From Candidatus Omnitrophota bacterium (GTDB taxonomy: Bacteria; Omnitrophota; Gorgyraeia; Zapsychrales; Fredricksoniimonadaceae), in NCBI GenBank assembly GCA_044225175.1, contig JBGAJA010000001.1:742711-806710 (forward strand): a stretch of DNA of 64,000 nt, written 5' to 3'. The notes beneath the pieces are model-generated. The model made no database searches. It saw only the letters and a list, made by a program, of their open reading frames with translations, and was not told where the DNA came from. A program made the translations under genes and the position numbers. How positions within the stretch are numbered: the stretch's first letter is position 1; every line of letters begins with the position of its first letter. This document shows, piece after piece, positions 1 through 26,500 of this stretch.

Positions 1-1762
1 TTTTAAATTCTGAATCGTTTGCAACAATGCTTTTGCTGCTTCATGTGGGCCTGTACGTTCCCAGCCATTTAAACCTAAACGGGTTCTCATTTGGCCCATG
101 TAAACATTGGCTTTAAAGAATGCATGGAAATACTTTTCAGCAATTTTGTCATGCAATTCTCTGTATTGAACAGGTCCAAAGACGTTTGCAAAGTAAGAAT
201 GCACAATACCACTTGTGGTTGTTGTTCCTTTGCTCATGACTGTTCCTTCTTTAAATACCTTCAAAGCAGTCTCAGCATTGGTGAACTTTTCAATAACAGG
301 ATGATCCTCATCTAGATCTTCGTAATTATTAGCATAAAGGATAAAATCAAGCTTATGACCTTTGATTAAGCAGTTGAATGTCGTCACAGGTAAGATAATA
401 CGAGCATTCACCTGATTCGCATTCATGATGATCGCTCTGTCAATTTGACCAAGCGCATATCCAGGCTGCAAATCATCTAAACGCAAGAAAGCACCGATTT
501 CTGTTCCATATCCAATGATCGAACCATCAGGGGCTATATCAAAAGACCCCATATCATCTGCAATAATAATAATATCTTGAATCTCATTTTCACCTAAGGA
601 ACGTAAAGCTTCTAAAGTTTCAGACTTACCAGCACCCGTATCTCCTATAAATAAGAATGTGAGATCTTTGTTGCCCTTTAAGATCAAACGGACCATAGCG
701 CCATGGAAAGGCAGACGGCCGAACTTCATGATCTTAATGTTATGCAACGTTAACACCATCTTCTTTAAATAGCCGAAATAACCAAATTCATCACGTCCTG
801 GAACAGCGCCAACTAACATGTCATTTGTTTCGTCATCATAAAAGACAGTTGGCATTTTGCCATAATGATCCAACGCATCCCCCTGAACGCCAAATGTATA
901 CACAGCATCAGGCTTGCGTTTCAAATCCTCATCATCAGCCATATCAAAAAGATTACATAAAGACAGGCCTAGTTCGAAAAATTTCTTATGGAAATATACC
1001 AACATAAGCAACGGACCAACCTTAGCTGGATAGCAAAGCCATTCATCTTTATTAAGGGAAACATCTTCTAAGGGATTCTTTTGAATGCGTTCAAATTTAC
1101 CGGTACGCTTATTCATGGGAGGATTCAAAATTAGTGGAGGATACAACAAAATTTGACGAATCATTGGTATACCTTGAAGCTTCTGATAGCTTCCTGCAGG
1201 CAAGTTCACCTGACGAGGAGATGTAATGACACCCACCTCAGCTCCTGCAATAACCTGACGATAGATTCTAGGGTGATGGTTAAGAAGATTTTCTGCAATA
1301 TCACGATATGTACTGCGAATCAAATGGCTTAATGGCTCAACCAAATCATTAAACGCTCGATAAGGTCTATGATCAAATTCACGGTTTGTTGAATCACAAA
1401 TAATAAAACGCTCAAATGAACGCCAATAGTTGTAGACGTAATCAATAAAGTCATTAAAAAGGTGTCTATCACGCAAAAACTCATCCGAACCAGGAACAGC
1501 ATTAGGTAAAAGATCAACAGAGTTTTTAGTTAAGAATTTTAAAGTTTGAATTAAAAGATTAACATTCTTCTCTTGATAGGAAGATCCAGATAAAAAAATG
1601 TTCAAAAGGATAGAGTTCTTACGTTTTAACGCATCTAAAGAACGAATAAGAATTTGTCTAAAAAGATCGCTCTCCACGACTTCACTTGTTGTAAAACAAG
1701 GATTTTCATGAATACGCATAATAACTTTGTTACCAAAAACGTCAAAATTAGAGATTGCCATC
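1..1762 (-). CDS. Hypothetical protein with HprK/PEPCK-like P-loop kinase motif; 3' end lies beyond the window
   Basis: Uninterrupted minus-strand frame from ATG (revcomp of 1760-1762) to the window edge, ~587 codons with no stop. Motif FLFIGDTGAGKSETLEAL...IIIADDMGSFDI resembles the HPr kinase C-terminal P-loop. Absent from the ORF track, presumably because no stop codon falls inside the window. Confidence 0.5.
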
Positions 1763-1852
1763 AACTAATTCCCCTTCTAATCCTTAAGTTGTTAAATAAG
1801 AACCTTGACCTACTTACAAGCTCAAAGACGAAAGTTTTTGAGCAAAGAAGAA

Positions 1853-3193: not shown

Positions 3194-3211
3194 ATATTCA
3201 GCGAAGAAAAA

Positions 3212-3285
3212 CGCGCCTGAGAGGGATCGAACCTCTAACCCTCAGTTCCGTAGACTGATGCTCTATCCAATTGAGCTACAGGCGC
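3212..3285 (-). tRNA. tRNA-Arg (anticodon ACG)
   Basis: Revcomp reads GCGCCTG-TA-GCTCAATTGGATAGAGC-A-TCAGT-CTACGGA-ACTGA-GGGTT-AGAGGTTCGATCCCTCT-CAGGCGC-G. Canonical 74-nt cloverleaf. Confidence 0.85.
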
Positions 3286-3338
3286 AAATGTATCCAAATA
3301 GAACGAAATTTATAGCAGATTTACAAGTAGCTGTCCAG

Positions 3339-3357
3339 CAGCTTTTCTAGCATTGTC
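3339..3357. repeat. 19-bp direct repeat flanking IS, left copy (cagcttttctagcattgtc)
   Basis: 18/19 identical to 4760-4778. It sits 4 bp outside the left IS terminus. Confidence 0.6.
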
Positions 3358-3361
3358 CCGC

Positions 3362-4752
3362 CAAAATAGAAATGTCCGCTTTCTACCAAATTAGAAATGT
3401 CCGCTTTTTGTATAACTGCCTGGCAACTTAAATAAGCGAAAACCATTGGTCAAGGCCACTGGTCTTCTGCTTCTAAATTTAGGAAATCTACGCTTAACTG
3501 GTTGATATACTTTGGCTGCTGGTCTATCTATTGGCTTAAAATTAAGCCTGTTTTTACCATGCAAGATACCTATCTGTCCATCAAGATATTCATGCACCAC
3601 AACCCGCTGAGCCCTGGTTTTGTCTAACACCTGATACCATTGATTATTGTGCACCAATGTTCGGTCATTACGTAACACATGTCCTGTCTGCACAGATAAT
3701 ATATCCTCGAGGTTAGTCTTTTTAGGAACCGACCTGTGAAAATCCCCACTGCCACGGGCCAATACCTCAAACTTCTTATTAAAAACAGGTAAATACGTTT
3801 TAAGTAGTCGGTTGGCATCTTCAAGGCTATTGATCTGTTCTAAACGTAATTCTTTAACTAATCTATCTTGTAGAGTCTCAAAGACCCGCTCAACACGTCC
3901 CTTAGCCTGCGGACTATGGGCAAATATAAGCTCTATACCAAGCTCGTGACAGGCTCTGCCAAACTGAGTCAATTCTTCTTCATCTCTAAATGGCCAATCT
4001 ATAAAAGTATTCTTACGATTGTTTTTGTACGTCGAGTGTTTATCTAAATAAATGCTTGCCGGCAGCCCATAACGCTGAATATAGCCCTTCAATCCTGCCA
4101 TCGCAGGCATCGTACCTTCATAATCATGAAATTCACCATGAAATCGACTATTAGCATCATCAATATATCCCATTAATACCAATTTAGGCCCTCGGCCTTC
4201 CAACCAATCATGATGACTGCCATCCATCTGCACCATCTGCCCAAAATGTTCACGGCGTTCTCGCCTTGTCCTATCTTTAGGCTTTGCTCTCTTGCTTAAT
4301 TGCCAAAGACCTTCTTTAATCAACCATAATCGCAACGTCTCATCACAGACCGTAATTCCATCCCGCTCCAACAACTTCTCCGACGCTAACACAGGTCCAA
4401 AATCCCAATAACTCTTCCTGTATAAATCTAAAACCTTCTTCCTAAAGCTTAATCCTATCTTACGGTTGCCTTCTTTACCTCTAAGCTTATGAATGACCCC
4501 AGCTTCTCCTTCACGCTCAATGCGTCTTATGATTCGCCGCACTTGCCTGCTATCCAATTTTAAATATTCTGCCGCTTCCTTTTGCTTGATCTGCTTATCA
4601 ATGACTTTTCGAATCACTTGATATCTTTTGATCTCCTTGCGACTCATCATAAAAATGTCCTTCCCGTTGTCCATAATGCCTCCTTGATTGCATTATGAAC
4701 ATTCTAAAAGCGGACATTCTTATTTTGGTCAATCCGGACAATTCTATTTTGG
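3362..4752 (-). mobile_element. Insertion sequence (~1.39 kb) carrying a single DDE/rve transposase gene with ~50-bp imperfect terminal inverted repeats
   Basis: Left end is ccaaaatagaaatgtccgctttctaccaaattagaaatgtccgctttttg. Revcomp of the right end is accaaaatagaattgtccggattgaccaaaataagaatgtccgcttttag. Each end contains the internal duplicated motif AGAAATGTCCGCTTT. Flanked by a near-identical 19-bp direct repeat. Confidence 0.75.
3391..4674 (-). CDS. IS transposase: N-terminal HTH plus integrase-core (rve, DDE) domain
   Basis: 427-aa ORF. N-terminal HTH-like region (KEAAEYLKLDSRQVRRIIRR), then an integrase-core region with acidic residues (VQMDGSHHDW, YIDDANSRF). Size and layout fit IS481/ISNCY-type transposases. 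The true start may be the internal Met (MMSRKEIKRY). Confidence 0.8.
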   Translation of the reverse strand: MDNGKDIFMMSRKEIKRYQVIRKVIDKQIKQKEAAEYLKLDSRQVRRIIRRIEREGEAGVIHKLRGKEGNRKIGLSFRKKVLDLYRKSYWDFGPVLASEKLLERDGITVCDETLRLWLIKEGLWQLSKRAKPKDRTRRERREHFGQMVQMDGSHHDWLEGRGPKLVLMGYIDDANSRFHGEFHDYEGTMPAMAGLKGYIQRYGLPASIYLDKHSTYKNNRKNTFIDWPFRDEEELTQFGRACHELGIELIFAHSPQAKGRVERVFETLQDRLVKELRLEQINSLEDANRLLKTYLPVFNKKFEVLARGSGDFHRSVPKKTNLEDILSVQTGHVLRNDRTLVHNNQWYQVLDKTRAQRVVVHEYLDGQIGILHGKNRLNFKPIDRPAAKVYQPVKRRFPKFRSRRPVALTNGFRLFKLPGSYTKSGHF

Positions 4753-4759
4753 TATTACA

Positions 4760-4778
4760 CAGCTTTTCTAGCATCGTC
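4760..4778. repeat. 19-bp direct repeat flanking IS, right copy (cagcttttctagcatcgtc)
   Basis: Matches 3339-3357 with one mismatch. It sits 8 bp outside the right IS terminus. Confidence 0.6.
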
Positions 4779-4806
4779 GAATAGATTCTACTGCCCTATT
4801 TTAATA

Positions 4807-4841
4807 AGAAAGCCCCTAGTACATATACAAGGGGCTTTCTT
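4807..4841 (-). terminator. Putative rho-independent terminator downstream of the N/Q-rich protein gene
   Basis: Perfect 12-bp stem AAGAAAGCCCCT / AGGGGCTTTCTT with an ~11-nt loop. On the minus strand it is followed by the A/U-rich tract UUAUUAAAAUA. Confidence 0.5.
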
Positions 4842-4865
4842 AACACTACAGGAGAATCAATGAGA

Positions 4866-5675
4866 TTACTTTAAAGATCGGCTACTCTTCGATTTTGATC
4901 CTGAGTGTGATTTAATGGAACTTGTTTGACCACCAGATCCTTTTTGAGATGTTGATCGACTAGGAGAAGAACCATTACTCTCACGCGATGATCTTGAAGG
5001 GGTTCGTGATCCTTGAGACCGAGAACCATGAGATTCTCTAGATTGTTGAAAATTTTGAGAATCATCTTGGTCCCAGCCTTGATTTTGAGAATCTCTCGAC
5101 ATTGAAGAGTTTTGATTTTGCCAATTATCATTATTGTCATTTTGATAATCAGAACGGCTCCTTTGAGAAGATTGGTTATTTTGATACCTCATATCATCAT
5201 TTTGATTATTTCTTGAGCGTGAATGTTGACTACGATCTTGGTCATAATCATCATTTTGATTCTGATTTCTTTCTCTATTTTGAGAATGATTAGAGTATTC
5301 ATCATTACTATTATTACTATTGCGAGAATTCGTACGTTCTCGGTCTTGAGATTGATAATTGGAGTTATTCCAATTCTTAGTGGAACTGAATCGTTCTTGC
5401 TCACGAGGCTGTGAATATTCTCCTCTGCTTGGATTGATTTGATTCATTGGTCTATTATCATCAAAATCTTCATCATTAGATTGATTTTGATTATTACGAT
5501 TGGAACGATGGTCATTCCAGTCATTACCTTGATTTGTATATTCTGGCGACTGCCAAGGTTCATCCCCATAATGGGGTTGTGAAGAACGCTTAGAATCTTT
5601 TTGTTGTCTATCATCATAATCTTGATAAGAGTCCTGATTTCTTCTAGGCTGCGGGTTTCTTGATGAATTTTTCAT
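4866..5675 (-). CDS. Low-complexity N/Q/S/D/R-rich hydrophilic protein; predicted intrinsically disordered, no signal peptide or TM
   Basis: 269-aa ORF. Strong SD (AAGGAGGGTAAT) 5-6 nt upstream of ATG. Terminator hairpin downstream. Sequence is dominated by N, Q, S, D, R, with repeated NQN/SRS/DYQ-type motifs. Confidence 0.6.
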   Translation of the reverse strand: MKNSSRNPQPRRNQDSYQDYDDRQQKDSKRSSQPHYGDEPWQSPEYTNQGNDWNDHRSNRNNQNQSNDEDFDDNRPMNQINPSRGEYSQPREQERFSSTKNWNNSNYQSQDRERTNSRNSNNSNDEYSNHSQNRERNQNQNDDYDQDRSQHSRSRNNQNDDMRYQNNQSSQRSRSDYQNDNNDNWQNQNSSMSRDSQNQGWDQDDSQNFQQSRESHGSRSQGSRTPSRSSRESNGSSPSRSTSQKGSGGQTSSIKSHSGSKSKSSRSLK

Positions 5676-5768
5676 ATTACCCTCCTTATTAAATAAGATT
5701 ATTCTTACTTAAGCACATTTTAGAGGACTGCTAATGAAGAGAAGATGAAAAGAAAATTAAAAAATGGA

Positions 5769-8285
5769 TTATTTTACAAATTTTTCTAAAATTTTTAAAG
5801 ATTTAGACATATCTATTCCTTTTCCGAAAACACCTTTGAATAAATCTCCTTTTTTCTTTAAACGCATAGGCATTGTTTTAATATTAAAATCTTGGATCTT
5901 AAGACTGCGATTCACTTCTTTCCACTCTAACGGAGCCGATACAGGAGCTTGGGGTTTAGGACGAAGACAATAAGCTACTGCCATTGTTGAAGCGTAATGA
6001 TTCTGCAAATAATCCAAATAGATAAGACCTTTTCTTTTCGAAGGACTTCTTTCTAAGCTTGTAACTTCAGGAGCCTGTTTATTAATGGCCATACATAAAA
6101 TCTGAGAAAAATTCTTTGTTTGCTCAAAATCATATTTCTTCTTTAAAGGAATATAAACATGAATTCCCCTTGATCCTGAAGTCTTACAGAAACCTTCCAT
6201 TTTGCAATGATCCATAATCTTCTTGGCAATTAAAACAGTATCTACAATAACCGGAAACTTCACATCAACTGGATCAAAATCTAAAACTAAAAAATCAGGA
6301 TGATGCGGTTTTACAATATCCGAACACCAGGCATTGAGTTCAATGCATCCTAAGTTATTCATTAAAGCCAGAGTCTCTTTATCTTTTCCAATTAAATAAT
6401 GAGTGATTTCATCATCTGTTTCGGATTTTAAAGACATTATCTTCACCCATTCAGGTGTTTTAAAATTAATATCTTTCTGGAAGAAACCAGGATCATTAAT
6501 TCCATCGGGTTGTCTATGCATCGATAAAGGCCGATTTTTAATATGTGGAATAATAAATGGAGCGATCTCTTGATAATAACGAATCATATCTCCTTTGGTA
6601 TAACCATCATCTGGCCAGAACACTTTATCTAAATTTGTTAAAGGAGTTCTAAGATTTAAATCAACCGTTTTATTCTCTGAATTTTCCTTTAGTAAAATCT
6701 TCTTTATCATGATTGGCTTTTCCTGCAAAACTTCTTGAGGCTTCTTATCTTCTCTTAAACCAAGGAATATGGGTTGACGCATATGTCCATCATCGGTCCA
6801 TTCTTGAAATTTAACCTGACATAATAATTGTGGTTTAACCCATGTGACGGGGGCATTGGTGGCTGGTCTTGTATTAAAAGGGCATTTGGATACGATTAAA
6901 GGCTTTAACTTTTGATAAATACTATTTAATAAGTCAAAATCAAATCCTCCACCCGCATGACCAATGTATTTAAGTTCTTTTGCCTTATAAACTCCAAGGA
7001 TTAAAGCTCCAAAAAACTTTCGGCTTCCTTTAGGTTGTGTAAATCCACAAATAATGGCTTCTTGCTCTTGAATAGCTTTGATTTTAAGCCAATTGGAAGA
7101 ACGTGCACCTATTTCATAGGGGCTTTGAAGATTCTTAGCAATAATCCCCTCTAAGCCGTTTTTCTTAGCAGCGTTATAAAAAGAAACTCCCTTGTCTTGA
7201 ATATAATCACTTAATCGGATAGATGGTAATTGGGGAATGACTTGTTTTAAAATTTCTTTACGGCGAGATAAGGGCAATCGATGCAAATCCAGGCCATTTA
7301 AATACAAAATATCAAACACATAGTAAATCAGCTGGCCGGCTTTAGGATCCTTAAGGTAGTTCTGTAGTAACTGAAAGCGACTCAAACCCTCTTGATCAAC
7401 AACAACCATTTCACCATCCAATAACATATCCTGAGGCAAATTTGTTAAGTCTCGAACAACATCAGGAAATTTCTCTGTATAAGTATTATCATTGCGAGAG
7501 TACAATCGCACTTTTTTCTTATTGATCTCAGCCAAGATCCTATATCCATCCCACTTCACCTCAAAAATCCAATCCTTGCGATCAAAAGGCTCATTAACAA
7601 GTGTAGCGAGCATGGGAGAAATTGTTTTAGGAAAAGAAGCTTTGGCTGCTCCCTCTAAATTAAGCTCTTTAGAAATTTTTGGAATTGTTTTCTTTACAGT
7701 GGATTTCCTTTTAGCATTATGAGAGATTTCATCTATAGAACGGCCTGTTTTTACAGAAACGTCATCATTTTTAATCGGTTGATCAGCAAATTCATCCGAT
7801 TTCTTAATTAAAAGCCATTGATTATCTTTCCCCCCTTGGATCTTGACTAATGTATAGAGGCCTTTGAGTTTATGTCCGTTAAGATAAAAAACTAACTTTC
7901 CTTTCTTTAAATCTTCTGTAATCTTTTTATCGTTGTCTTTCTTACTTAAATGTTCATCCACATAATACTCGCCATTATCCCAAAGCATAACCGTGCCTGC
8001 CCCATAGTTCCCCTCTGGGATTGTTCCTTCAAAGCTACCATAGTCAAAAGGATGATCTTCTACTTCAACAGCAAGACGTCTAGTATGAGGATTAGTGGAA
8101 ATTCCTTTAGGAACCGCCCAGCTTTTTAGAACACCATGATTCTCAAGACGAAAGTCATAATGCAAATGAGAAGCATCATGCTTTTGGACGACAAAATGCA
8201 ACTTTCCATTAGTATTGACCATCTGTGGTGGGGGCTCGGGAGTCTTCTTGAAATTTCTTTTCTTACGGTATTTACTCAGCGACAT
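5769..8285 (-). CDS. ligD: Multifunctional NHEJ DNA ligase D (phosphoesterase - ATP-dependent ligase - polymerase/primase)
   Basis: 838 aa. N-terminal PE motif KLHFVVQKHDASHLHYDFRLE. Central ligase motif KxDG (FEVKWDGYR). C-terminal LigD Pol region (VFWPDDGYTKGDMIRYY...HRQPDG). Confidence 0.9.
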   Translation of the reverse strand: MSLSKYRKKRNFKKTPEPPPQMVNTNGKLHFVVQKHDASHLHYDFRLENHGVLKSWAVPKGISTNPHTRRLAVEVEDHPFDYGSFEGTIPEGNYGAGTVMLWDNGEYYVDEHLSKKDNDKKITEDLKKGKLVFYLNGHKLKGLYTLVKIQGGKDNQWLLIKKSDEFADQPIKNDDVSVKTGRSIDEISHNAKRKSTVKKTIPKISKELNLEGAAKASFPKTISPMLATLVNEPFDRKDWIFEVKWDGYRILAEINKKKVRLYSRNDNTYTEKFPDVVRDLTNLPQDMLLDGEMVVVDQEGLSRFQLLQNYLKDPKAGQLIYYVFDILYLNGLDLHRLPLSRRKEILKQVIPQLPSIRLSDYIQDKGVSFYNAAKKNGLEGIIAKNLQSPYEIGARSSNWLKIKAIQEQEAIICGFTQPKGSRKFFGALILGVYKAKELKYIGHAGGGFDFDLLNSIYQKLKPLIVSKCPFNTRPATNAPVTWVKPQLLCQVKFQEWTDDGHMRQPIFLGLREDKKPQEVLQEKPIMIKKILLKENSENKTVDLNLRTPLTNLDKVFWPDDGYTKGDMIRYYQEIAPFIIPHIKNRPLSMHRQPDGINDPGFFQKDINFKTPEWVKIMSLKSETDDEITHYLIGKDKETLALMNNLGCIELNAWCSDIVKPHHPDFLVLDFDPVDVKFPVIVDTVLIAKKIMDHCKMEGFCKTSGSRGIHVYIPLKKKYDFEQTKNFSQILCMAINKQAPEVTSLERSPSKRKGLIYLDYLQNHYASTMAVAYCLRPKPQAPVSAPLEWKEVNRSLKIQDFNIKTMPMRLKKKGDLFKGVFGKGIDMSKSLKILEKFVK

Positions 8286-8289
8286 TGGA

Positions 8290-9060
8290 TTAACGCCCTG
8301 CAGTCGCCAGACTTTCTTTTAACCGAGCAACAATATCTGGGAGAGGGCCCTTTCGAGCAGTAAACTTCTTAATAGGAATTTTCTTACCTTTTTTCTTATC
8401 ATTGATGATCTGTCTTAGTTTCGCTGTGTAATCATCTTTAAATTTCTCAGGATGAAAAGGCTGGGATAATTTATCGATTAACTCTAAAGCTAAATCCATC
8501 TGATTTTTAGGGATTTTCACTTTTTCAGGAAGATGCAGCTCAGAGATGTCTAAGATCTCTTCATGAAAGCGCAGCATATTAAGTATAAGAACACTGCCTT
8601 GAGGTTTGATCATTGTTAAATGCTCTTTTTCCTTGAGAACAAATTTTCCAATACCCACCCTTTTAGACTCAATTAAAGCTTCTCTAAGCAAAGCATAGAC
8701 TTGCTTGGATTGTTTCTCAGGTTCAAGATAATAGGGTTTTTCTGCATACTTAATGTCGATATCTTTCTCTGGAACAAAGGCCTCGATATTGATTGAGTAT
8801 GTTTTTTCGATATCGGCCTGTTTAAAGTCATTCTCATCCAAAATAACATAATCCCCTTTCGTATATTCATACCCACGTACGATATCTTCTTTTTTGACCT
8901 CTTCTCCTGTACTACGACAAACCTTTGTATAACCTATAGGACATAAATCATTCTTGCGCAGCATATTAAAATGAATATGACTTTCTGTGACCGCGGTATA
9001 AAGCTTGACTGGAATATTTACTAAACCAAAGTTGATGGATCCTGTCCAAATAGCACGCAT
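8290..9060 (-). CDS. ku: Ku DNA end-binding protein
   Basis: 256 aa. N-terminus MRAIWTGSINFGLVNIPVKLYTA is the bacterial Ku signature. Lies immediately upstream of ligD. Confidence 0.9.
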   Translation of the reverse strand: MRAIWTGSINFGLVNIPVKLYTAVTESHIHFNMLRKNDLCPIGYTKVCRSTGEEVKKEDIVRGYEYTKGDYVILDENDFKQADIEKTYSINIEAFVPEKDIDIKYAEKPYYLEPEKQSKQVYALLREALIESKRVGIGKFVLKEKEHLTMIKPQGSVLILNMLRFHEEILDISELHLPEKVKIPKNQMDLALELIDKLSQPFHPEKFKDDYTAKLRQIINDKKKGKKIPIKKFTARKGPLPDIVARLKESLATAGR

Positions 9061-9533
9061 TAAAGGTTCTCCATTTTGGGAGTTAATTTTGGCTCCTGGA
9101 CTTTCTCATCAATTGCAACTTTATGCACATAAATCAATTCTCCTCCCAGCCATCCACTCAAACCTAAAAGGACTATTCCCAGAAAAGATAATGCGAATGG
9201 AATTCCTCTGATGTCATATTGATATTCATATCTCAAATAGAAATTAAACGCATATAGAACAACCAATATTAAATTGATGGCCATATGCCATGTAGCAACT
9301 TTTTTAGTTGGGGGATCTTTTAAAGAAAAATAGTCAACAAACCCTGGAAGTGCAGCTAATAAAGCACCTACACATCCCGCTGCCATTGAATAGGAGGCAA
9401 TCACAGCCCACAATGGACTGTTAAGAGAAAAATAAAGTAAATCAGCAATAAATGAAAATACCCAAAGGCCAATAGGGATAGAAACTAACATAGGATGAAT
9501 GGGATGACCTGCAATACGAGCTTTATTTTTCAT
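9060..9533 (-). CDS. DUF2231-like integral membrane protein
   Basis: 157 aa with 4 predicted TM segments. N-terminus GHPIHPMLVSIPIGLWVF is characteristic of that family. Its stop overlaps the Ku start. Confidence 0.65.
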   Translation of the reverse strand: MKNKARIAGHPIHPMLVSIPIGLWVFSFIADLLYFSLNSPLWAVIASYSMAAGCVGALLAALPGFVDYFSLKDPPTKKVATWHMAINLILVVLYAFNFYLRYEYQYDIRGIPFALSFLGIVLLGLSGWLGGELIYVHKVAIDEKVQEPKLTPKMENL

Positions 9534-9610
9534 AAATGTCTCCTTTTTCTTTATTTAAAATAACAAAAGAAAAATGAAGCAAAGATGAAAATACAATGAA
9601 AGGGATAGCC

Positions 9611-9910
9611 TTAGGTGAAGAAAATGATGTAAAGCAAAAAACAGATAACAGCAAAAGAGGCTAAATAGAAATCATTGAAATAAAAGAAATCTTTAAGTTT
9701 CTCTGATGGCGTGTAAGTGTATTGAACATTCTCACTAACAATTTCACCGCTGGAACGTATTTCCATTACTTCATTACGTTTTAAACGCAAAAACTGATCA
9801 GCAATCTTATAAGCTTGTAGTTGTCCGCCATCAATCATATCCATGACTTTTTTTTCGGATATACCAAGGATTTGTGAAGTTTCTCGGACTGTAATGTACT
9901 GACTACTCAT
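9611..9910 (-). CDS. Excisionase-family HTH (HTH_17) protein with hydrophobic C-terminal tail
   Basis: 99 aa. ITVRETSQILGISEKKVMDMIDGGQL matches an excisionase/MerR-type HTH. C-terminus FAVICFLLYIIFF is hydrophobic. Overlaps the upstream bactofilin stop by 4 nt (ATGA). Confidence 0.55.
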   Translation of the reverse strand: MSSQYITVRETSQILGISEKKVMDMIDGGQLQAYKIADQFLRLKRNEVMEIRSSGEIVSENVQYTYTPSEKLKDFFYFNDFYLASFAVICFLLYIIFFT

Positions 9911-10428
9911 GACTTAACCTTACCTGAAGCAGCCCATTGATCAATTTTAACACGTTCAAATTTCCACCCACTATCATCTTTAATGGCAGGGATCTTTCCA
10001 GTTGTGGCCAATTCCTCAATCGCCTGAGCCTCAATCTCTAAATACTGAGACAAATCTTCAATATTCAAAAATTCATCCATCATTTGGCATTGTCCTTGAA
10101 AAATAGCACCTTCAACAATGTTGAGTTTACGACTCGAAATATCTCCTGTGAGAATAGCCGTGGGCATGAGTACAAGCATTTTCTTAGCAATTACATTGCC
10201 TTTGACCTTACCAGCAATGATGATATTATCGCCTTGTATATTCGCTTCTACGTAAGCATCTGGCCCAATCGTGAGAGTTCCTTTAGTTTCTAATTTTCCT
10301 AAGAAACGTCCCATGATCTTTAGATTGATAGGATCATTGAAAGAAAGGGCCCCTTCCATTTGAGCTCCAATTTCAATAACTTTTTCTTCGGGAACCTGTT
10401 CTTTTGCCTCTCTGCGAATAAATGCCAT
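9907..10428 (-). CDS. Bactofilin-family cytoskeletal protein
   Basis: 173 aa. The central part is a repetitive beta-helix-like motif (IQGDNIIIAGKVKGNVIAKK...ILTGDISSRKLNIVEGAIFQG), typical of the bactofilin (DUF583) domain. SD AAGGAG upstream. Confidence 0.7.
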   Translation of the reverse strand: MAFIRREAKEQVPEEKVIEIGAQMEGALSFNDPINLKIMGRFLGKLETKGTLTIGPDAYVEANIQGDNIIIAGKVKGNVIAKKMLVLMPTAILTGDISSRKLNIVEGAIFQGQCQMMDEFLNIEDLSQYLEIEAQAIEELATTGKIPAIKDDSGWKFERVKIDQWAASGKVKS

Positions 10429-10507
10429 TTAAACTCCTTTTGTACGGATAGATCAGTGATCTGTCCCTACCATTATTAATTCAATATATCCAATTGACCT
10501 CTTAAAG

Positions 10508-11461
10508 TCAATTATTGATCATGCGATAGCCAAAACCAGCAATCATGGCTGCATTATCTAAACATAAGGATAGTGGAGGAAAATAGACTTGAATTCCTTT
10601 AGATAGGCCTTGTTCAATCATTTGCTGTCTTAAAGCAGAATTAGCAGCCACTCCACCTCCAATTAACAGCGTTGTAACCTTTTTTTGAACACATGCCCGG
10701 ATAGCCTTATCCGTGAGGGCTCCCACAACACTTTCTTGAAAAGAAAAAGCAACTTCTTCTACTTTATAATCCTTGTTCTTCTGGGTATGGTATAACACAG
10801 CTGTTTTAAGCCCGCTAAAGCTAAAGTCATATTTATTATCTAATTTTGCTTTAGAAAATCGAATTCGATCATTGGCACCTGTTTTAGCCAGACGATCAAT
10901 CACAGGGCCTCCTGGGTAACCTACCTTTAACAGACGCGCAACTTTATCAAAGGCTTCCCCAGCCGCATCATCTACCGTCTTTCCCATAAGCTTTACCTTT
11001 TTGAAATCTTTAATATCAAAAAGACTTGTATGCCCTCCAGAAACCACCAAACCAATGGCAGGAATCTTAGGAAGAGGGGCTTGATCATCTTTGATTCTTA
11101 AGAAGTTTGCATACCAATGAGCTTGAATATGATCAACCTCTATCAAAGGTTTCCCAGAGGCATAGGCCAAAGCCTGAGCAAAGGCAATTCCTACAAGCAA
11201 AGAACCAATCAAACCTGGCTTGACCGTAACTGCAATAGCATCAATATCTTTTAAAGTCATCTTTGCTTCTTTTAAAGCTTGGGAGACTATCACATGAATA
11301 GATTCAATTTGACGACGCGAGGCAATCTCAGGAATAATGCCACCATACTCTGCGTGTTCTTTAAGGGAACTAATCACAATATTAGAATGCACACGAATTC
11401 CATCACTGACAATGGCAGCTGCCGTTTCATCGCATGATGTTTCAATTCCTAGGATGTTCAT
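10508..11461 (-). CDS. tsaD: tRNA N6-adenosine threonylcarbamoyltransferase
   Basis: 317 aa. MNILGIETSCDETAAAIV and the Kae1/Gcp family metal-binding core. Confidence 0.9.
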   Translation of the reverse strand: MNILGIETSCDETAAAIVSDGIRVHSNIVISSLKEHAEYGGIIPEIASRRQIESIHVIVSQALKEAKMTLKDIDAIAVTVKPGLIGSLLVGIAFAQALAYASGKPLIEVDHIQAHWYANFLRIKDDQAPLPKIPAIGLVVSGGHTSLFDIKDFKKVKLMGKTVDDAAGEAFDKVARLLKVGYPGGPVIDRLAKTGANDRIRFSKAKLDNKYDFSFSGLKTAVLYHTQKNKDYKVEEVAFSFQESVVGALTDKAIRACVQKKVTTLLIGGGVAANSALRQQMIEQGLSKGIQVYFPPLSLCLDNAAMIAGFGYRMINN

Positions 11462-17571: not shown

Positions 17572-20500
17572 TTACGACTGATAAACTTCTTCAGGATGGT
17601 TTAGGCCAAGAAACTCTGAGACATTGGTCATTGGCTGAATGTTGGTGATGACGGGTTTAAAACCAGGGGCATTCTGCAGTTTCTGCAACATAGATGGATC
17701 GAGGTTAAATCTGATCTCTTCTCCTGCGTTACGAACTTCCAAAGGAGTTTGATTAGCTGTGAAATCAATACCGCCCTTATTCTGGAACCTCGTAGGTTCC
17801 AGTGGCTTGGTGAGTTGGGCTGGGTCCGTTTTGGGTAAGAGTGTTATGACGGAAAGGAATTGCATAAATCTTGAGAATTTTTTATCATGGGTGAATAAAT
17901 CGTTTTTTGTAAGAACACCAAATTCAAAAGAATCCTTTTGAGCATTACTCTCAAAATATTCAAATAAATGGGCAAGTTCATGAATAGTTGTATTAGTAGG
18001 CTTATGGATCGCTCCATTAGAAGAAATATCCATTCTATGAGCTAATTGAGCATTAATGTACACTTTAGAATGACCCGAACGTCTACTGAACAACCCTTGA
18101 AATGGAGCTTCTGCCTTTACTATAACAACCTGCTCAAACCCTAATTTTTGCCCAATCTTTTGCACGAGACTTAACAAACGCTGTTGTTGAGAATTTAATG
18201 CTTCCTCAGGAATAGCCAGTGATTCAGCACTTATCATGGTGGCAATATGAGACATTCGATTAGCAAGCGCTCCTCTTTGCGCACCCCAAGGATCAACTGT
18301 ATTCAAAGCCTGTTGAAAACCTGCTTCATCTATACCCAAACTCTTGGCTCGTCTTCTGGCTGCCTCTTCAGAAATAGCAGCCTGAGTTTTTATTCTGCGC
18401 ATTAAAAGACTATTTTTGCCATCTTTGGTCTGCACATTCAATTGAGCTAAAAATGGAACCAAAGACTCTTCGAAAGATCGATTTACACCCTTACCTTCAA
18501 ACCAGCCTTTAAGAGTAGTTAAATCTTGATGACTAATAAGATGACCAGCATTAATATCGTTAATCACATCAAAAAGAGACCTTTCTTTTGCCAGAGACCA
18601 TTGTGTTTGATTCTCTGGACTTAAAACATTCCAATAAGACTCTCGCGCAGAGGTTTCCCAATCTCGAGGGATTTGGCTAATATGAAAATCAGGGTTAGTT
18701 AATTCTTGATGGATTAGAGCTTTATAAAACTCGAGGGCCACATACTGTTGAATGACAGGCATAATGACGGCTTCTTGTTCAAATGAACTTCTATTTTGAA
18801 TCAAAGGCAGAGGGATCTGAATAACCAAACGAAGCTCCTCAATATGTTTACGTAAGGATTCTGGAATCAAAGCTAAGAATTCCTTCTTCAAAGACAAACT
18901 TTCAACCCTCAATCCCTTTTTATCAATGATTTGCAATGGCATATCTGAATCTTGAGTGGACCAAAGTTTCAAAGGACCATAGTTGTGCTGACCTATTTTC
19001 AAATCTATTTCTGTTAACAAATTCTTTCCTTTAACTTTGACCTGTTCTTCTGTGATACGACCTTCTTCCTTTTCCTTTTCAACAACCAATTTAAACTGCT
19101 CATTAGAGGCCATCCCTGCAAACATTTTCCATGTATGTTGGCCTAACATCTGGTCAAGCTCAGCAATAGAGCTTTGAGAATTTCTCATTCGTCTTATAAT
19201 GACTCCTTTCGAGAAATCTTGAGGATTGGCAATCCCAACCTTAACAACAAAAACTCGACCCAGAGTTCGATTGACCTTCATCTCAAAGACATAAGCTTCT
19301 TGGCCATTGTTAGCAATCATTTGCACACGATCAACACCAGAATAAATGGTGAATTTACCAGTTCCAAAAAAACCAACTGTTTGGCCATTTTGTTGGTCTT
19401 TTATTTTATTGGACTTGGGGATGAGTAAAGCCAATGCTTTTCCCAGAGGAGGCCCTTGACCATCATCCACAGCTTCTTCGACCAGATCGCCCGTTTGAAC
19501 ATCTTTGTAATAACGCACCAGTAACTTATTAGCCCCTGCATCAGAAGAGTTTTGAGGAATTTCAGCCGCATAGCGGCCTGCTTCACCTTGAACATTCACA
19601 TATTGGCTAATTTCCCGTCTAAGATTAGGATTATCGATCGCCATCATTTGGCCTATATGTTCAGGGGTAAATAATCCTGCAATATCATACATACTCGATT
19701 GATCTATTCCAGAGCGCTTGTCCGCATTGAATTGAGCAATGTTTTCAACAGGAATACCTTCCTCTTTTTGCATAAGCCATTGAATATCTTTGGGCAATTC
19801 CAAGTCTTTCGTTTGCACATGATCAACACGGTTAGTCAAGAAGTCCACAAAAAACTGGGCTTCGCCTAATTCTGTAGCAGAACGGCGATCTGTTGCAGCT
19901 AATACGATTTGTTCTAAAGGTGTATGACTAAAGGCTTCATACCAAAGGGCCAAGTAGGATTCTTTACCCTTGCCTTTTGAAAATAAAAGCAATTTGTTTA
20001 ATTGATCTACTGCAATATCAATACTTTTATTGCCATTTTTTGCGACAAGACTTAAGAATACTACCATCAACGAACAAATATGAACGCTTATCTTTTGTCC
20101 ATAAATTTCATATAAAAGATCCAACATTTCATTAATAGGCTTAACTAAATTGATGGAATGATCGGCTTCTATTTTTAAAGAATATGTCATTGCTAATAAC
20201 CAAGAAGGAATATCAGCATTCTCCAAAGAAATCTTTTCATTCATAGCCATTACAAATATTTGATGGCTTAAACCTCTATAAAATTGATCACCAATCTCAT
20301 TATCAACCAAAGTATGTTCACTGGAAGGAAATAAAGGATTGCCTTTCTTCTTTAAATCTTGTAAACCTCTCAACAGTAGACTCATCTTTTTTATAAAAGA
20401 TTCCACCATAAGGTCATCCAAATTGACATGTTCTTTACCATTAGCTAAAGCATCTTTAAAACGTGTTTTAATCTGCTCTTTTTGCTTAGAATAGAAATAC

Positions 20501-23500
20501 TTGAATATTTCTAATAATTTCCCCTTATCTTTGACTTGAAGGAAATCCAAAACAGGTTGATAGGCTTCTCTAGCACGGGCAACAATCTCATCTCTCTTGT
20601 CTGTCACCTGCTTCCAAAGCATCTCTGCCCTAATCCTTTGTTCTTCTGAAACATCGTTCGCAGGGTTATTAGAGTGTTCATGAGCATATTTTTGAGGATC
20701 AAAAAACCTTATTTCATCTGTTTTAGGATTATGAAAGATAAAAACATTACCATTGATTCCCTGCAATTCAAAATCAGCGGGGATGCCTTTGACATCAAGC
20801 CAGGGATTTTCATTGAAATGCAAGGCATAGCCACCAGAATCTAGAGATGTGAGAACATACCTATTATCTGTGGTGACCCATGAGTCTAACCTATAATCTG
20901 CGTACTTACGCGATAAACGACTGTCCTGAAAACGCATATCAAGAAGACTATTATTTAAAGTATCTTTCTTAAACCATATCCCCTGGGAATAAAACGCTTG
21001 GATCTCCTGATCAGGAACTAAAAGATCACTTGTACTAGAACGATTTAAGTCAAGCCAATAGGTAGTTTCTTGACCGCGCTGATTATCTTTAACGATATAA
21101 ATGTTTCCAACCAACATTCGAGTGGAATCTGGAGGAATCAAATTTGTGGGAACTTTGATAAAATGCTGATCTTTCAAGTGAACAATATCAATCTCTCCAC
21201 TTAGAACAAAGGCTTCCCAGTATTCAGGCAAAATTTGATCATAATTAATACTCACCATATCTCCATTACTCCTGATCTTCCAGATCGTGACATGGTATAA
21301 ATCATTAAAACTACACAAGAAAATTTCATCATTGTTTCTAACAATATTAAATCCTACCTTTGATTCACCAATAACCCTCCCATTCTTTATTAAATAAGCC
21401 TTGAGAGTAGTTTCATCCACAGACGAGTACAAAATAATTTTACCCGAGTGATCCAAAGCTAATTTTTTAGTTTGAATGGTTTCATTAGTTACGAAATTAA
21501 TAATTTGATAGTTTTTAATCCCTGTTTCAGTTGATGTAAACTCTTGAATAAGCACTTCACTGTCCTTTATGAAATATTGTTTTAACGTGTGGTTAGTAAA
21601 GTGTAGAGCATCTATTTCAGCTTGCTCGACACCTCCTCGATCGTTAACCGCTAGAAACACTGTCACTTTATCAGGTGAAGTCATCCTTGGTGTGAATACA
21701 ATAAATTTCCCAGAATCAGAAATAGACACTTCGCCATTAAGATTTTGGTTTATATATTTTTCATTTTTTAGATTATAAATTGATTTTCCATATGGACCTT
21801 CCAGCAGAACAAGCTCACCTTTTACTTCTTTAACTGTTGTATTAGGAGGCACTAAAAAGACGTATTGGGATGCATATAGGGTTTGTCGACCATCATTGCT
21901 TGTAACAACAAAAACTTCCGGCGATATTTCGAGATAATCAACATAAGATATTGGATTTAATTTAGGATTACTCAAATCTCTGAGCTCAATCTTCTGTCCT
22001 TTTCGAAAGCTAGTCCATCGAGTTGCTAAAACTAAAGGAGGATTTTCACTAAAAAAATGATCGATAGGCGCGGTTAGAATTTTGGTTGGTTCATCAGGAT
22101 CCACATAAAGCGCCTTGCCATTGTCTGGATTATAAAACACAAAATATTTGCCATCGAATTCGACTCGGGGATATTCTTTAACAAATACAGGAATTTCACC
22201 TAACCCTCCTGCCTTTAACCCATCACTAATCATATACCGCTCTGATATGGAATTCGCATAAACGATCTTATGGCTCGATTCATCATACGCGCCAGCATCA
22301 ATATTTGGATCTAAACGTGGATTCATCATTCCGAAACTTAAAGTACCATCTTCTAATAAAACAATAATAGTAACCCTAGAAAGAGTTCCAATTAATTTTC
22401 CTTTAAATTTAAATTTTGCAAGCGAATCCTTTAAACTCCATGCTATCGTGTGGGTTGGATTGCTTTCATCAATCAAGAAAGGAAAACGAGGATGCTCATA
22501 AATCTTTCCAAAAATATTTTTTAAATCAAACTCTGCGCCACCTACCCCTAAAATTCCTTCTCCATTAATCCATAAAGCCATAATAGAATTTTTGTAGTTT
22601 TCCGAAAGCAATACTTGAAAAGATTTATCTTTTAAAAAAAACTTATTGGATGCTGTTTTTAATCTAAAGGCCCTATTTCCATCTTTGTCAAAACCTAATA
22701 CAGCTTCTCTATATTTCTCTTCAGAATCATTTAACCATTCCTTCGTTTCTGTGTTATAAAGTCTCACCTGGTCCCCATACGAAAAAATAGCAACTCCAGA
22801 AAGCGGATCAATATAACAAGATTCTGCCTGCGCAATCCCAACTTGAAGATCAACATAATTAGCTGTACCAGAATTTGGTTTTCGTAATTCCATAATCGAA
22901 GAATAGGGATGGAAACTCACCTCTCCTTCAAGATCAGCTAATCTGAGTACTGACTTGTCTTTCATATCAAAAATATGATAGTCATTCATAATACCTTTTA
23001 TTTTAAAAACAATAAATCGACCGTCTGGACTTATTTTCATTTCTTTAATTTTCCTTAATTCTTGGATCTCTCCTTCAAGAAAATTAATATATTTAGATTT
23101 TTCTGTATCAAAAGCTGTATATGAACCATTACTTAACTGATAAAACACATGCCTTCCATCTGGACTTAATATTGGCTCACCTATAGCATCCATCGGGTTT
23201 TGCCATATCAGTTGACTACCCGACTTAAAGACTAAAGCATTGTGGTGGATAGGATCACCTTCAACAGCAACAGCATATTTGTACTCAACCCACATATAAT
23301 CCCCATGTAAAACTCGTATCTTTGTAATTGTTGTTGCTTCACCCACCCATTTAATCTTTTGCCCCGTTGCAATCTCATAAACGTCCCCATTTCTCAACAT
23401 ATATTTCATTCGCGCATCTGCAGGAACATACACTTGTTCTTGAGGTTGTGTCATATCTGGTGGGGTGGTTAAGAACTTCGAAATAGCTTGATTATCTGCA

Positions 23501-26500
23501 GCTCCATCATCGTAAACTTTTAAATCCGGCGTGATAGGAGTATTCATTTTAGCCGTGGGTTGCGGAGCCCCCATTTCGTAACTGGTTGCTGGCTCATCTT
23601 CAGCCAAAAGCTTGATACGTTCCCCTAAGCTTAATAATTCCGTATGTTCATCAGCGCTTAATGGTGATTTACGTCTTTGCTCTAAAAGGTCTAGAAATCG
23701 CTGGGCCATTTGTCTGGGTACAATGACATAGCCATTGGTTTTAATTTTAGGCAAATCGTGGTGTTTTAGGAAATCGAATGTTCTAACATCATAGTTCATA
23801 AACGCTCTTAATGCGTCTGGTGTGAAATCAGCCACGATCAATTCTAATGTCTTTGAACCAAGGGTTTGTTTACTGATTAAATGAAAGTCATTGTATCGAA
23901 CAATGGTGGCACCGATCGATTCAAGCGCTTTTTGGGCGCCCCATTCAAATATATCTTCATTAACAAAGAGAACTTCTTTGCCTTGCTTCATAAGTAATTG
24001 GCCAAAACCTTTCTCATTAGGCAAAAGCACATACTTACCACTAGACTGCAAGGAATTGATCAAACGAGCAATTTTCTTTTTGATCATTCGCTTGATATCA
24101 TTAACCACATAGGCATTTTCTTGATTATCAGCAATCAAAGCTTCTAAGCCAGCCACAAGTGTATTGATGTATTTGATCTTCTGCACATCTCCCATTGGAT
24201 TCTCAAGAATACCTTTGACCATTTGTTCAACAGCCAATTGCATAGGCCAAGGGTTTCGAGCGTCATGATCCGATGGAAAGATGACCTTGTCTCTGGATTG
24301 TTGAACATTGATAAGCGTAGCAAACTCAAGGGCCAAATTTCCTTCAATTACAGAATCAGGATGAGTGGTCTCAGAAAGAGGAATACGCATGATAACTTCC
24401 CCATTTCTAACAAATGCGACAGACCTGCCTGGCTCATGAACATGAATGACCTTGATCTTACGAAGCTCCTCTTGAATGTCTCCTTGTGATAAGCTTTCAG
24501 TTGCCTTTGTTCCCCCTTCACCCGGGACTAACATTCCAGATAACACAGAAATATTCATCCCACTGCCATTATCAACAACCTTGATTTCGTGTTCATTAAA
24601 ATCAATGTTAATCCATTTTTCTTCTGATTTCACAAGTTGGTGTCCACTTGGCACAATAAACTCTCTATTTTCCCATCCATTGATCTTTTCTGTCTGTTGA
24701 TTTAGCTGTGTGGTAATTTTGATGTTTTCTACAATTCCAAAACGACTATGAATATTGTCCTTTAACCATTTTAAAGAATTGACTTGGCCATCCTGTACAA
24801 TGCTTTTGACTTTTCCTATTCTTACAACAGTCCCTTGTGTCATTCCTGGAACTTGGGTGGCCTTAAGAAAATCATCATCAGTCATAGAATAAATTTGTAT
24901 TTGATAAGCCTTATGTTCATCTTTCATGACTGTTAAACGCCAGGCTGGTTTGCCTTCTTGTTTGGTTACAATATCCAATCGATCTCCTGGATCCTCCAAC
25001 CAATCTAAAATTTGTTTAACTCCCTTACCAAACTGACCAATAGAGCCGCCCAATGCATCAATGCTATTAGCAACTGCTTCAATAATCGATTGCCCCTTGG
25101 GGTTTCCACTTTGTAAGCCAATGACAGAATCTAACCGTATCTCTTCATTAGTTCCTGCCTTTAAAGATTTGATCATGGCCTCTGTATAGCCTTGTTTGGC
25201 TAAAGCTTCTAGTGTTTCGATCGGAGATTCCTGACGCTTAAGCTTTTTCTGTGCCCTTAAGAATTCTAAAAGGTTAACCCCATTAAAAGGCAAAGCATTC
25301 CAATAGCTGTTATCACCCACCGGGTTGTCGGGATCAATCCTGGCAGAAACCATGGCTAAATCGCCCATTAAAGCATCTTTGGATATGGATTGAACTGTTT
25401 TAAAAACTTCTCCTAATCCATATTTAGAAGAGTTCAAAGCTAAATCAGCTCCCCCAGAGAAATACTTTCGTGGAATTGATTGATGGGTTATAGGATCAGT
25501 TACTTCTTTGATATAGTTGTAGACGCCTTTTTTGAAAGCGGTCAAGTAACGTTGGTAAATTAATTCGATATCTGTAGGGGCAGGGCTTGTCCCTGCCCTA
25601 GATAGGGCGGGTGTAAAACCCGCCCCTACAATTTTATTCTGATCAATATACACCTTTGCTAAAATCGAATCCCTAATCTTCTTCTTGTACCAGGTAGCTA
25701 GAATCAAAGAACCATACACCTGCCTAAGCTGCACAAAGTTGGCCCCTTCATTGATCTCTTTGGTCAATTCAGGAATAACAACCTCCCGTATGATCTGACT
25801 GTGCAAAAAGGTGTCAGACACCTTTTTATCAACCCGCCCCTTCAAAAAGGTGTCTGACACCTTTTTGGAGGCTACGTAGTCTTCTTCCAACATCACCTTT
25901 AGCCTGGATTCCACTACATAGGCTGTTCCTGCTTTAGCATTCTCATAAACCACTGCCTTTTCAGGGACTATCCATACCTTGTTGAAAGTATTGACTGGGA
26001 TATTGGTTGTTCCATACCTTTTGGCGGATTCTTCATAGATTCTTCTCCAGAATCTCTTTCCTATCTCATCTTCTGGGTACATAAGGCTGGCTGTGATCTG
26101 CTTTAGCATGTAGTCCTGGGCTAATAGGTCACGTCCCATCTCGGTTTGGCCAAAGCTTTCTGGGACAATGCGGTTTTTCTCATAGGGACTTAGATTCACC
26201 CATAGGTCGGCTTCTGGGGTGGTTAAAGAGGCCAAAAAGTACTTGATTAGACGGCTGGATTCTTGCCTTAAATTATGTGCATCAGCGACGGAACGTGACC
26301 CTGGATCTAGGATAAAATCGAAGCGAAAGGGGTTATCTGGATGGACCTTGATTCCTTTGAGTAGAGGTGGGGTCACAGGCGGACTTAAATGCACTCTCAC
26401 CCCAGGCTTAGGCAAATGAATGTCCTGGGCGTACGTCGGCATAGGACCCATACTGGTCACAATAAAACTAACCAAGATGACAATGACTAATGGGGTTTTG

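Follow-up and report, generated by a model that had tools for sequence, protein, structure and literature searches.

Bacterial hydrophilic intrinsically disordered proteins (IDPs) such as DtpA and DtpB promote desiccation tolerance (PMC13552118). Hydrophilins, which have been reported to be rich in Asn and Gln, are required to contain more than 6% glycine (PMC4190154), and Q/N-rich prion-like regions are defined by at least 30 Q/N per 80 consecutive residues, with charged residues, Cys, and Trp scoring negatively in prion-composition predictors of the PrionScan/PLAAC type (PMC8409284). With respect to genomic context, ku and ligD, the genes of non-homologous end joining (NHEJ), are stress- or stationary-phase-induced in S. 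meliloti and sporulation-controlled in B. subtilis (PMC6379672). Here, we describe an open reading frame (ORF) next to ligD in a 64,000-nucleotide stretch of a Candidatus Omnitrophota genome (GCA_044225175.1, contig JBGAJA010000001.1, positions 742,711 to 806,710). This whole stretch is called the window throughout, and all coordinates below are its own. We refer to the reading frame as the orphan ORF and to its product as the orphan protein. The explanation that we prefer, while regarding it as possible rather than probable, is that of a lineage-restricted disordered protein that may serve as a stress-phase protectant or condensate-former, and that would be co-expressed with the NHEJ genes.

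On one hand, the orphan protein shares with hydrophilins, DtpA/DtpB, and plant late embryogenesis abundant (LEA) proteins an extreme hydrophilicity and a predicted full disorder, and with hydrophilins a richness in Asn and Gln; a further likeness is that its neighboring genes are ones that other bacteria induce under stress. On the other hand, it has no sequence homology to any hydrophilin.

The orphan reading frame and its product

The orphan ORF occupies positions 4866–5675 on the minus strand, where the ORF list and its translation give 269 codons and 269 amino acids, with the stop codon of the coding sequence at 4866–4868. Its Shine-Dalgarno (SD) sequence, AAGGAGGG (5680..5687, minus strand), lies 4 nt 5′ of the first in-frame ATG. 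When the 20 nt upstream of each of 45 genes of the window were scored against the canonical anti-SD, the duplex at the orphan ORF (−12.7 kcal/mol) ranked first. Most of the 45 gene starts have a weak SD or none, and a strong one is found only at the orphan ORF, the transposase gene of a neighboring insertion sequence (IS), the DUF2231 gene that opens the ku unit, and a bactofilin-HTH gene.

The stop-free run over the orphan ORF is 280 codons long, whereas runs in local shuffles (n = 2000) average 74 codons and never exceed 191. In shuffles of the whole 64 kb (n = 20), the longest stop-free run was 243 codons, and one of the 20 exceeded 190. Synonymous codon choice, measured as relative synonymous codon usage within each amino acid, correlates with that of 29 long genes of the window at r = 0.95, and the log-likelihood of the codons is −241 under the genome’s preferences versus −295 under uniform usage. 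The coding strand is strongly A-rich, and codon position 2 is 53% A and only 4% T, which is a frame-specific signature; codon usage and GC content are native-like. An origin of the low complexity in DNA slippage or peptide repeats was considered and ruled out, as Tandem Repeats Finder reports a single 18-nt array in the ORF, and a split self-alignment of the protein scores 106 versus 98 ± 8 in shuffles, i.e., shows no excess of internal repeats. In addition, an identical protein with the same upstream ligD is present in two independent Logan read-set assemblies (SRR28480385 and SRR28480388), and gene callers predicted it identically on both of the contigs concerned, each of which is 100% identical to the window. 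Judging from these sequence features, we infer with good confidence that the orphan ORF is a translated gene.

The orphan protein is made up largely of S (20.8%), N (15.6%), Q (13.4%), R (11.2%), and D (10.0%), with 10 Y, 5 W, and 3 F as its aromatic residues. It has no A, C, or V, and only two I and one L. Basic and acidic residues are nearly balanced (39 versus 38, net charge about +1; charged fraction 0.29, D+E 14%), and with a grand average of hydropathy (GRAVY) of −2.43 it is by far the most hydrophilic stretch of the window. AlphaFold2, run on the single sequence, returned a mean predicted local distance difference test score (pLDDT) of 45, a predicted TM-score of 0.12, and zero DSSP elements; single-sequence models are generally weak, and with that caveat the prediction is one of disorder along the whole chain.

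Along the chain, two parts can be distinguished. An N/Q/D-rich body (residues 1–210; 5046..5675, minus strand) holds all 18 Y/W/F, and its residues 31–210 carry a net charge of −12. In post hoc comparisons with shuffled sequences, the aromatics of the body are unusually even in their spacing (standard deviation of gaps 5.7 versus 10.1, with a fraction of 0.0085 at or below the observed value, i.e., more even than 99.15%), and D or E stands at position −1 of an aromatic in 8 of 18 cases (p = 0.0065). The body is followed by a basic, S/R/K/G-rich tail (residues 211–269; 4869..5045, minus strand) with 24 S, 12 K+R, and 2 D+E, in which there is neither an aromatic nor an Asp. Composition-preserving shuffles leave the last 60 residues free of aromatics with a probability of 0.009, and free of D with a probability of 0.0005. 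Global charge segregation along the protein is not significant (15% of shuffles reach the observed value); only the tail is distinct. Because the aromatics are even, the tail lacks aromatics and Asp, and no repeat origin was found, this non-random architecture suggests selection on the protein. The predicted product is thus a 269-residue disordered polyampholyte, with a slightly acidic Asn/Gln/Asp body bearing Tyr/Trp/Phe “stickers” and a basic tail.

These results bear on an earlier note on this DNA, which was made from the letters alone. It had described a strongly signalled gene between an IS and the NHEJ operon, with a perfect SD (AAGGAGG), coding for an intrinsically disordered protein rich in N/Q/S/D/R and sprinkled with aromatics, and lacking transmembrane segments and a signal peptide. 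The neighbors are indeed an ISNCY element and ligD, and the SD is present and forms the strongest anti-SD duplex among the 45 genes. The long open run together with this first rank supports the coding-like character of the gene, and residue counts bear out the composition. The protein also has no sufficiently hydrophobic stretch for a membrane segment or signal peptide, and the low pLDDT, the missing DSSP elements, and the strongly negative GRAVY agree with the proposed disorder.

Transcription unit and surroundings

Upstream of the orphan ORF, and on the same minus strand, Pfam identifies a DUF2231 membrane protein (9060–9533), Ku (8290–9060), and a three-domain LigD (5769–8285). These three genes (5769..9533) are tightly packed, with overlaps or 4-nt gaps. 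The spacer between ligD and the orphan ORF is 93 nt long (5676..5768, minus strand) and has no significant structure (fold z = −0.72), and no terminator-like site was found on the minus strand between 9600 and the orphan ORF. The first strong stem-loop on the strand is a stable hairpin (4805..4842, minus strand), identified by fold calculation, with 17-nt arms (4805–4821 and 4826–4842) and a 4-nt loop. Its stability in context is −33.8 kcal/mol (z = −5.5; none of 200 shuffles as stable), and no second hairpin like it occurs in the window. It is likely to be the transcription stop of the ku–ligD–ORF unit. The simplest reading of this arrangement places the orphan ORF last among the cistrons of the DUF2231–ku–ligD unit and lets the whole unit end at the hairpin; we infer co-transcription because the genes share a strand, the 93-nt gap is unstructured, and the first strong hairpin comes only after the ORF. 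The earlier note had taken the hairpin to be the orphan gene’s own terminator. A stable hairpin does lie 3′ of the ORF, but it is not necessarily the gene’s own, since it is the first strong stem-loop on the strand downstream of ku–ligD and the ligD–ORF spacer holds no significant structure.

Directly upstream of the DUF2231–ku–ligD unit is a pair of genes (9611–10428, minus strand) encoding a bactofilin-HTH_17 fusion of 173 aa and then a 99-aa HTH_17 protein with a C-terminal hydrophobic segment, an arrangement that is kept in a sister genome (GCA_020049755.1, JAHZTO010117583.1). The sister contig is about 92% identical in nucleotides to window positions 7370–10838, across bactofilin-HTH, HTH_17, DUF2231, ku, and the 5′ part of ligD, and ends inside ligD, short of the orphan ORF. 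Around 7645–7700 there is an apparent indel in ligD between the two, and identity drops to 85% beyond it. A search with the LigD C-terminus for the downstream region of the sister gave as its nearest match a sequence of 60% identity, where a stand-alone PrimPol is followed by an AHSA1 gene.

On the other side of the hairpin is the ISNCY insertion sequence (3339..4775 including direct repeats, minus strand), recognized by its transposase and inverted repeats. The transposase (3391–4674) scores 394.6 bits against the ISNCY equivalog (cutoff 250). The imperfect inverted repeats are at 3361–3396 and 4717–4752, and a perfect 15-bp direct repeat, CAGCTTTTCTAGCAT, flanks the element at 3339–3353 and 4761–4775. 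The element appears to have inserted recently, with the hairpin on one side and tRNA-Arg(ACG) (3211–3286) on the other. Both short-read contigs that carry the orphan ORF (L001 and L002) break at window position 4730, and because these independent assemblies break inside the inverted repeat, the IS is probably multi-copy. The orphan gene was also considered as cargo of this IS and rejected as such, because the gene (4866) and the hairpin (4805–4842) lie outside both the inverted repeats and the 15-bp direct repeat.

Elsewhere in the window, a giant ORF of 2991 aa occupies 17572–26547 (minus strand), and four tandem ORFs with overlapping stops, of 529–535 aa each and probably paralogues, lie at 52496–58870 (plus strand). 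About 1.8 kb at the start of the window (1–1850) has no ORF above 100 aa and no Rfam match at the gathering threshold, and is followed downstream by tRNA-Ser(GCT) at 1852–1940.

Relatives, synteny, and competing explanations

In the explanation that we prefer, the orphan protein would be made whenever the ku–ligD unit is transcribed, which by analogy with other bacteria would be during stress and in stationary phase, and its role in the cytoplasm at such times would be that of a protectant or condensate-former. The polar body, studded with aromatics and Arg, would give weak multivalent self-association and water retention, while the basic Ser/Arg/Lys tail may bind nucleic acid or other polyanions. 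In its favor count the coding and expression signals of the ORF, the predicted disorder of the product, and the non-random architecture of the chain. The stress context favors it as well, with the regulation of ku and ligD in S. meliloti and B. subtilis, the stress-type genes around ku–ligD in the nearest Ku relatives (one of which also encodes an unrelated disordered protein of 206 aa there), the hydrophilic ORF beside ligD in Rufibacter, and the desiccation tolerance promoted by DtpA and DtpB.

A number of observations weigh against this explanation, among them that conservation lends it no support, as zero homologues were found. A word-indexed HMMER search of 5.8 billion clusters yielded 494 candidates, none at E ≤ 1e-3, and an exhaustive phmmer search of 1.84 billion representative proteins gave no matches to the orphan protein; not even a self-match appeared, since the collection does not contain the exact sequence. 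The null result is informative and not an effect of composition filters, since in a control at the same database size phmmer still recognized copies in which 70% of the positions had been redrawn from the same composition (E = 7e-12), and it did not match shuffled orphan sequences. No relatives were found in back-translated pattern and tblastn scans of JGI metagenomes and viral contigs, no match among PDB sequences, and none in Pfam (E ≤ 0.1), NCBIfam, PHROGs, or PADLOC. With no detectable relative in the searched collections, the orphan protein is, as far as these sequences reach, restricted to one lineage.

Synteny likewise speaks against it. Our survey covered 170 loci, of which 80 genome and 80 metagenome loci surround LigD relatives (one genome per species plus JGI metagenomes; at most about 53% identical) and 10 are neighborhoods of close Ku relatives, and it was scanned for ORFs that are N/Q/S/D/R-rich in an 80-residue window or very hydrophilic. 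No ORF of comparable N/Q/S/D/R richness was present among these 170 other LigD loci, and only the two identical copies were recovered; the other flagged ORFs were out-of-frame Arg-rich artefacts in GC-rich DNA, plus a few unrelated hydrophilic ORFs. In the five nearest Ku relatives (69–76% identical Ku), different genes lie 3′ of ligD. The genes that follow ligD in close Ku relatives include those for a YgaP-like membrane protein with GH15/TREH_N, a convergent ferritin, KaiC-KaiB, and a GFO/IDH oxidoreductase. Linkage of the orphan gene with ku–ligD is therefore not conserved, either across the 170 loci or in the five closest Ku relatives. Where close Ku relatives are named (72% and 55% identity), they are labelled Candidatus Omnitrophica/Omnitrophota.

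Some hydrophilic or low-complexity ORFs of other kinds were seen in the surveyed loci. Rufibacter roseus has a 185-aa G/N/D-rich ORF (L003:9198-9752; GRAVY −1.6) directly upstream of ligD, without a Pfam or NCBIfam match, and Chitinophaga loci have a conserved 75–81-aa P/E/K-rich ORF about 4 kb upstream of ligD. Five loci of relatives (L083, L088, L089, L084, and L086) carry stress-type gene sets, KaiBC, and also secreted T/G/N-rich low-complexity proteins.

The remaining points against the preferred explanation concern the gene itself and its class. The only other copies, two in number, are 100% identical, so that no ratio of nonsynonymous to synonymous substitution (dN/dS) can be obtained. 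The exact protein is absent from a collection of 15 billion proteins, although five proteins encoded near it on the same 819,945-bp NCBI contig (Ku, LigD, TsaD, DUF2231, and the transposase) do occur there; the assembly’s gene calling may have skipped the ORF, or the collection may filter such sequences. The U-tract behind the hairpin is weak (UUAUUAAAAU), which is why a consensus terminator scan missed the hairpin. All of the patterning statistics are post hoc. Finally, the protein has 4.1% Gly (11 of 269 residues), below the hydrophilin threshold, and as a possible LEA protein or dehydrin it has no Pfam match at E ≤ 0.1 and no internal repeats beyond what its composition gives.

The earlier note had linked the protein to dormancy or desiccation survival by way of ku–ligD, and had named a lack of homologues or synteny, together with a lack of expression, as grounds for giving the idea up. 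On the sequence side this is what was found, with zero homologues and a linkage that is not conserved. What speaks for the proposed link is the adjacency and the presumed co-transcription in this one lineage, and also the stress-type neighborhoods in its nearest relatives, whereas homologues and conserved synteny do not support it. Around ku–ligD in the nearest relatives, the stress-type genes are DUF892/YciE-like, DUF6496, BON, DJ-1/PfpI, ferritin, DUF3185/DUF3175, and GH15/TREH_N. The dormancy-module link is thus an unproven hypothesis, drawn from position in one lineage and from the stress flavor of relatives’ ku–ligD neighborhoods.

Nearly as likely as the protectant explanation, and likewise short of probable, is that the orphan is a young or very fast-evolving gene that is translated and has no connection to NHEJ or stress, with its position after ligD being an accident. 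It was possibly born de novo from an A-rich 3′ trailer of the operon, and the strongly A-rich coding strand, with its 53% A at codon position 2, fits such an origin. The absence of homologues despite adequate search sensitivity and the lack of synteny conservation favor it too, as does the composition, for young genes typically encode disordered products of low complexity. Less easily accommodated are the strongest SD of the window and the native-like synonymous codon usage. The ordered architecture suggests selection on the product and so tells against it as well, but nothing ties the product to NHEJ specifically. More generally, a gene’s position beside a famous operon says little about a shared function when the synteny is not conserved. 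Disordered proteins without relatives are frequent in uncultured lineages, and the present evidence illustrates that the orphan genes encoding them there can be well signalled.

A further possibility is that the ORF is spurious, i.e., an untranslated 3′ trailer or spacer in which a biased composition avoids stops by chance. We consider this unlikely. A spurious frame would account for the missing homologues, for the low-complexity composition, and for the absence of the exact protein from the large collection although its neighbors are included there. However, its 280 codons exceed the maximum of both the local shuffles (191) and the twenty 64-kb shuffles (243), and a perfect SD stands at the right distance from the first ATG. 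Furthermore, the synonymous preferences match those of the genome (r = 0.95), the 4% T at codon position 2 is specific to the frame, and the ORF was called independently on two Logan contigs.

To a further and more novel reading, we give even less credence. In this reading, the orphan protein, produced along with Ku and LigD, would be a lineage-specific disordered accessory factor of NHEJ, whose basic Ser/Arg/Lys tail would coat or bridge DNA and whose N/Q-rich body, with its aromatics and Arg, would form a protective or synapsis-promoting condensate at breaks in dormant or dehydrated cells.

Very doubtful is a Q/N-rich protein, prion-like or amyloid-forming, whose conformation would switch heritably or reversibly. 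The earlier note had called the composition prion-like, and the crude test agrees, as the densest Q/N window (residues 132–211) has 35 Q+N per 80 and thereby passes the threshold of 30. With Q/N-rich prion domains (yeast Sup35 and Ure2, and Clostridium botulinum Rho) the protein also shares an enrichment in S and Y. However, 23 of the 80 residues in that window are charged and the protein has five Trp, so that the depletion of charge and Trp expected of such domains is not seen and this part of the earlier description holds only superficially. Unlike the domains of Sup35, Ure2, and Rho, the orphan is about 29% charged, which is far too much for a classical prion domain, contains Trp, has no hydrophobic or amyloid-prone core (A and V are absent, L occurs once, and I twice), and is a stand-alone protein rather than a domain on a functional partner.

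As improbable is that the gene rides along with the IS or another mobile element, or that a host-dependent bacterium exports its product as an effector. The gene does adjoin an ISNCY copy and a tRNA-Arg gene, and its SD is strong like that of the transposase gene. However, both the gene and its hairpin are placed beyond the repeats of the element, the gene is native-like in codon usage and GC content, its product lacks a signal peptide and any hydrophobic segment, and no match was found in viral contigs, PHROGs, or PADLOC.

Comparison with known disordered proteins

The earlier note had likened the protein to hydrophilins and LEA proteins, and as a matter of membership this likeness does not hold, with Gly at 4.1% rather than above 6% and no Pfam or NCBIfam family. 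The GRAVY of −2.43 satisfies the hydrophilin limit of < −1. For the mean hydrophilicity (> 1 in hydrophilins), the outcome depends on the scale, with 0.74 on the Hopp-Woods scale and 2.43 on the inverted Kyte-Doolittle scale. Apart from its low Gly, the orphan differs from the desiccation proteins in having no 11-mer or other repeats, no potential for Lys/Glu/Ala-rich amphipathic helices, and no match to the LEA, KGG, or CsbD families of Pfam. As an extremely hydrophilic IDP, it resembles proteins of the DtpA/DtpB type in a loose sense. Very few stand-alone disordered proteins of bacteria are tied to a DNA-repair or dormancy module, and the orphan would join them should it be made together with Ku and LigD.

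A protein of similar style is found in the ku–ligD neighborhood of GCA_964499685.1 (L083:393-1010). It is a disordered protein of 206 aa with a GRAVY of −1.82, and has a basic N-terminus, an acidic middle sprinkled with aromatics (GW, SW, QW, DW, and GY), and a basic C-terminal tail. It differs from the orphan in being E/S/K/G/P-rich rather than N/Q/D-rich, and in lying upstream of ku rather than after ligD. Homology between the two was considered and rejected (BLASTP E = 3.1; Smith-Waterman z = 0.18).

With tardigrade Dsup and other disordered DNA-shielding proteins, the orphan protein shares disorder, Ser-richness, and a basic C-terminal segment that is a putative DNA binder, and its gene is associated with DNA-break repair by position. 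It differs from them in having no homology and no demonstrated HMGN-like motif, and in the larger part of its chain, which is acidic to neutral and N/Q-rich. A role as an NHEJ accessory factor, if real, would make the protein a bacterial counterpart in function to Dsup-like shields, or to the condensates of eukaryotic repair foci.

Low-complexity domains of the FUS/hnRNPA1 type have polar S/N/Q spacers, regular aromatics, abundant Arg, and predicted disorder, all of which are shared by the orphan protein. The orphan differs from them in its bacterial origin, its much higher acidity (D+E 14%), its Trp, and its low Gly content, and no RNA-binding domain is attached to it. The uniform aromatics in a polar disordered chain that characterize sticker-and-spacer proteins are present (gap standard deviation 5.7 versus 10.1, a post hoc comparison). 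In the spacing of its aromatics and in its Arg, the orphan therefore most resembles sticker-and-spacer low-complexity domains, and phase separation is putative. If it is co-made with Ku and LigD, it would offer a compact and tractable bacterial case of sticker-spacer architecture.

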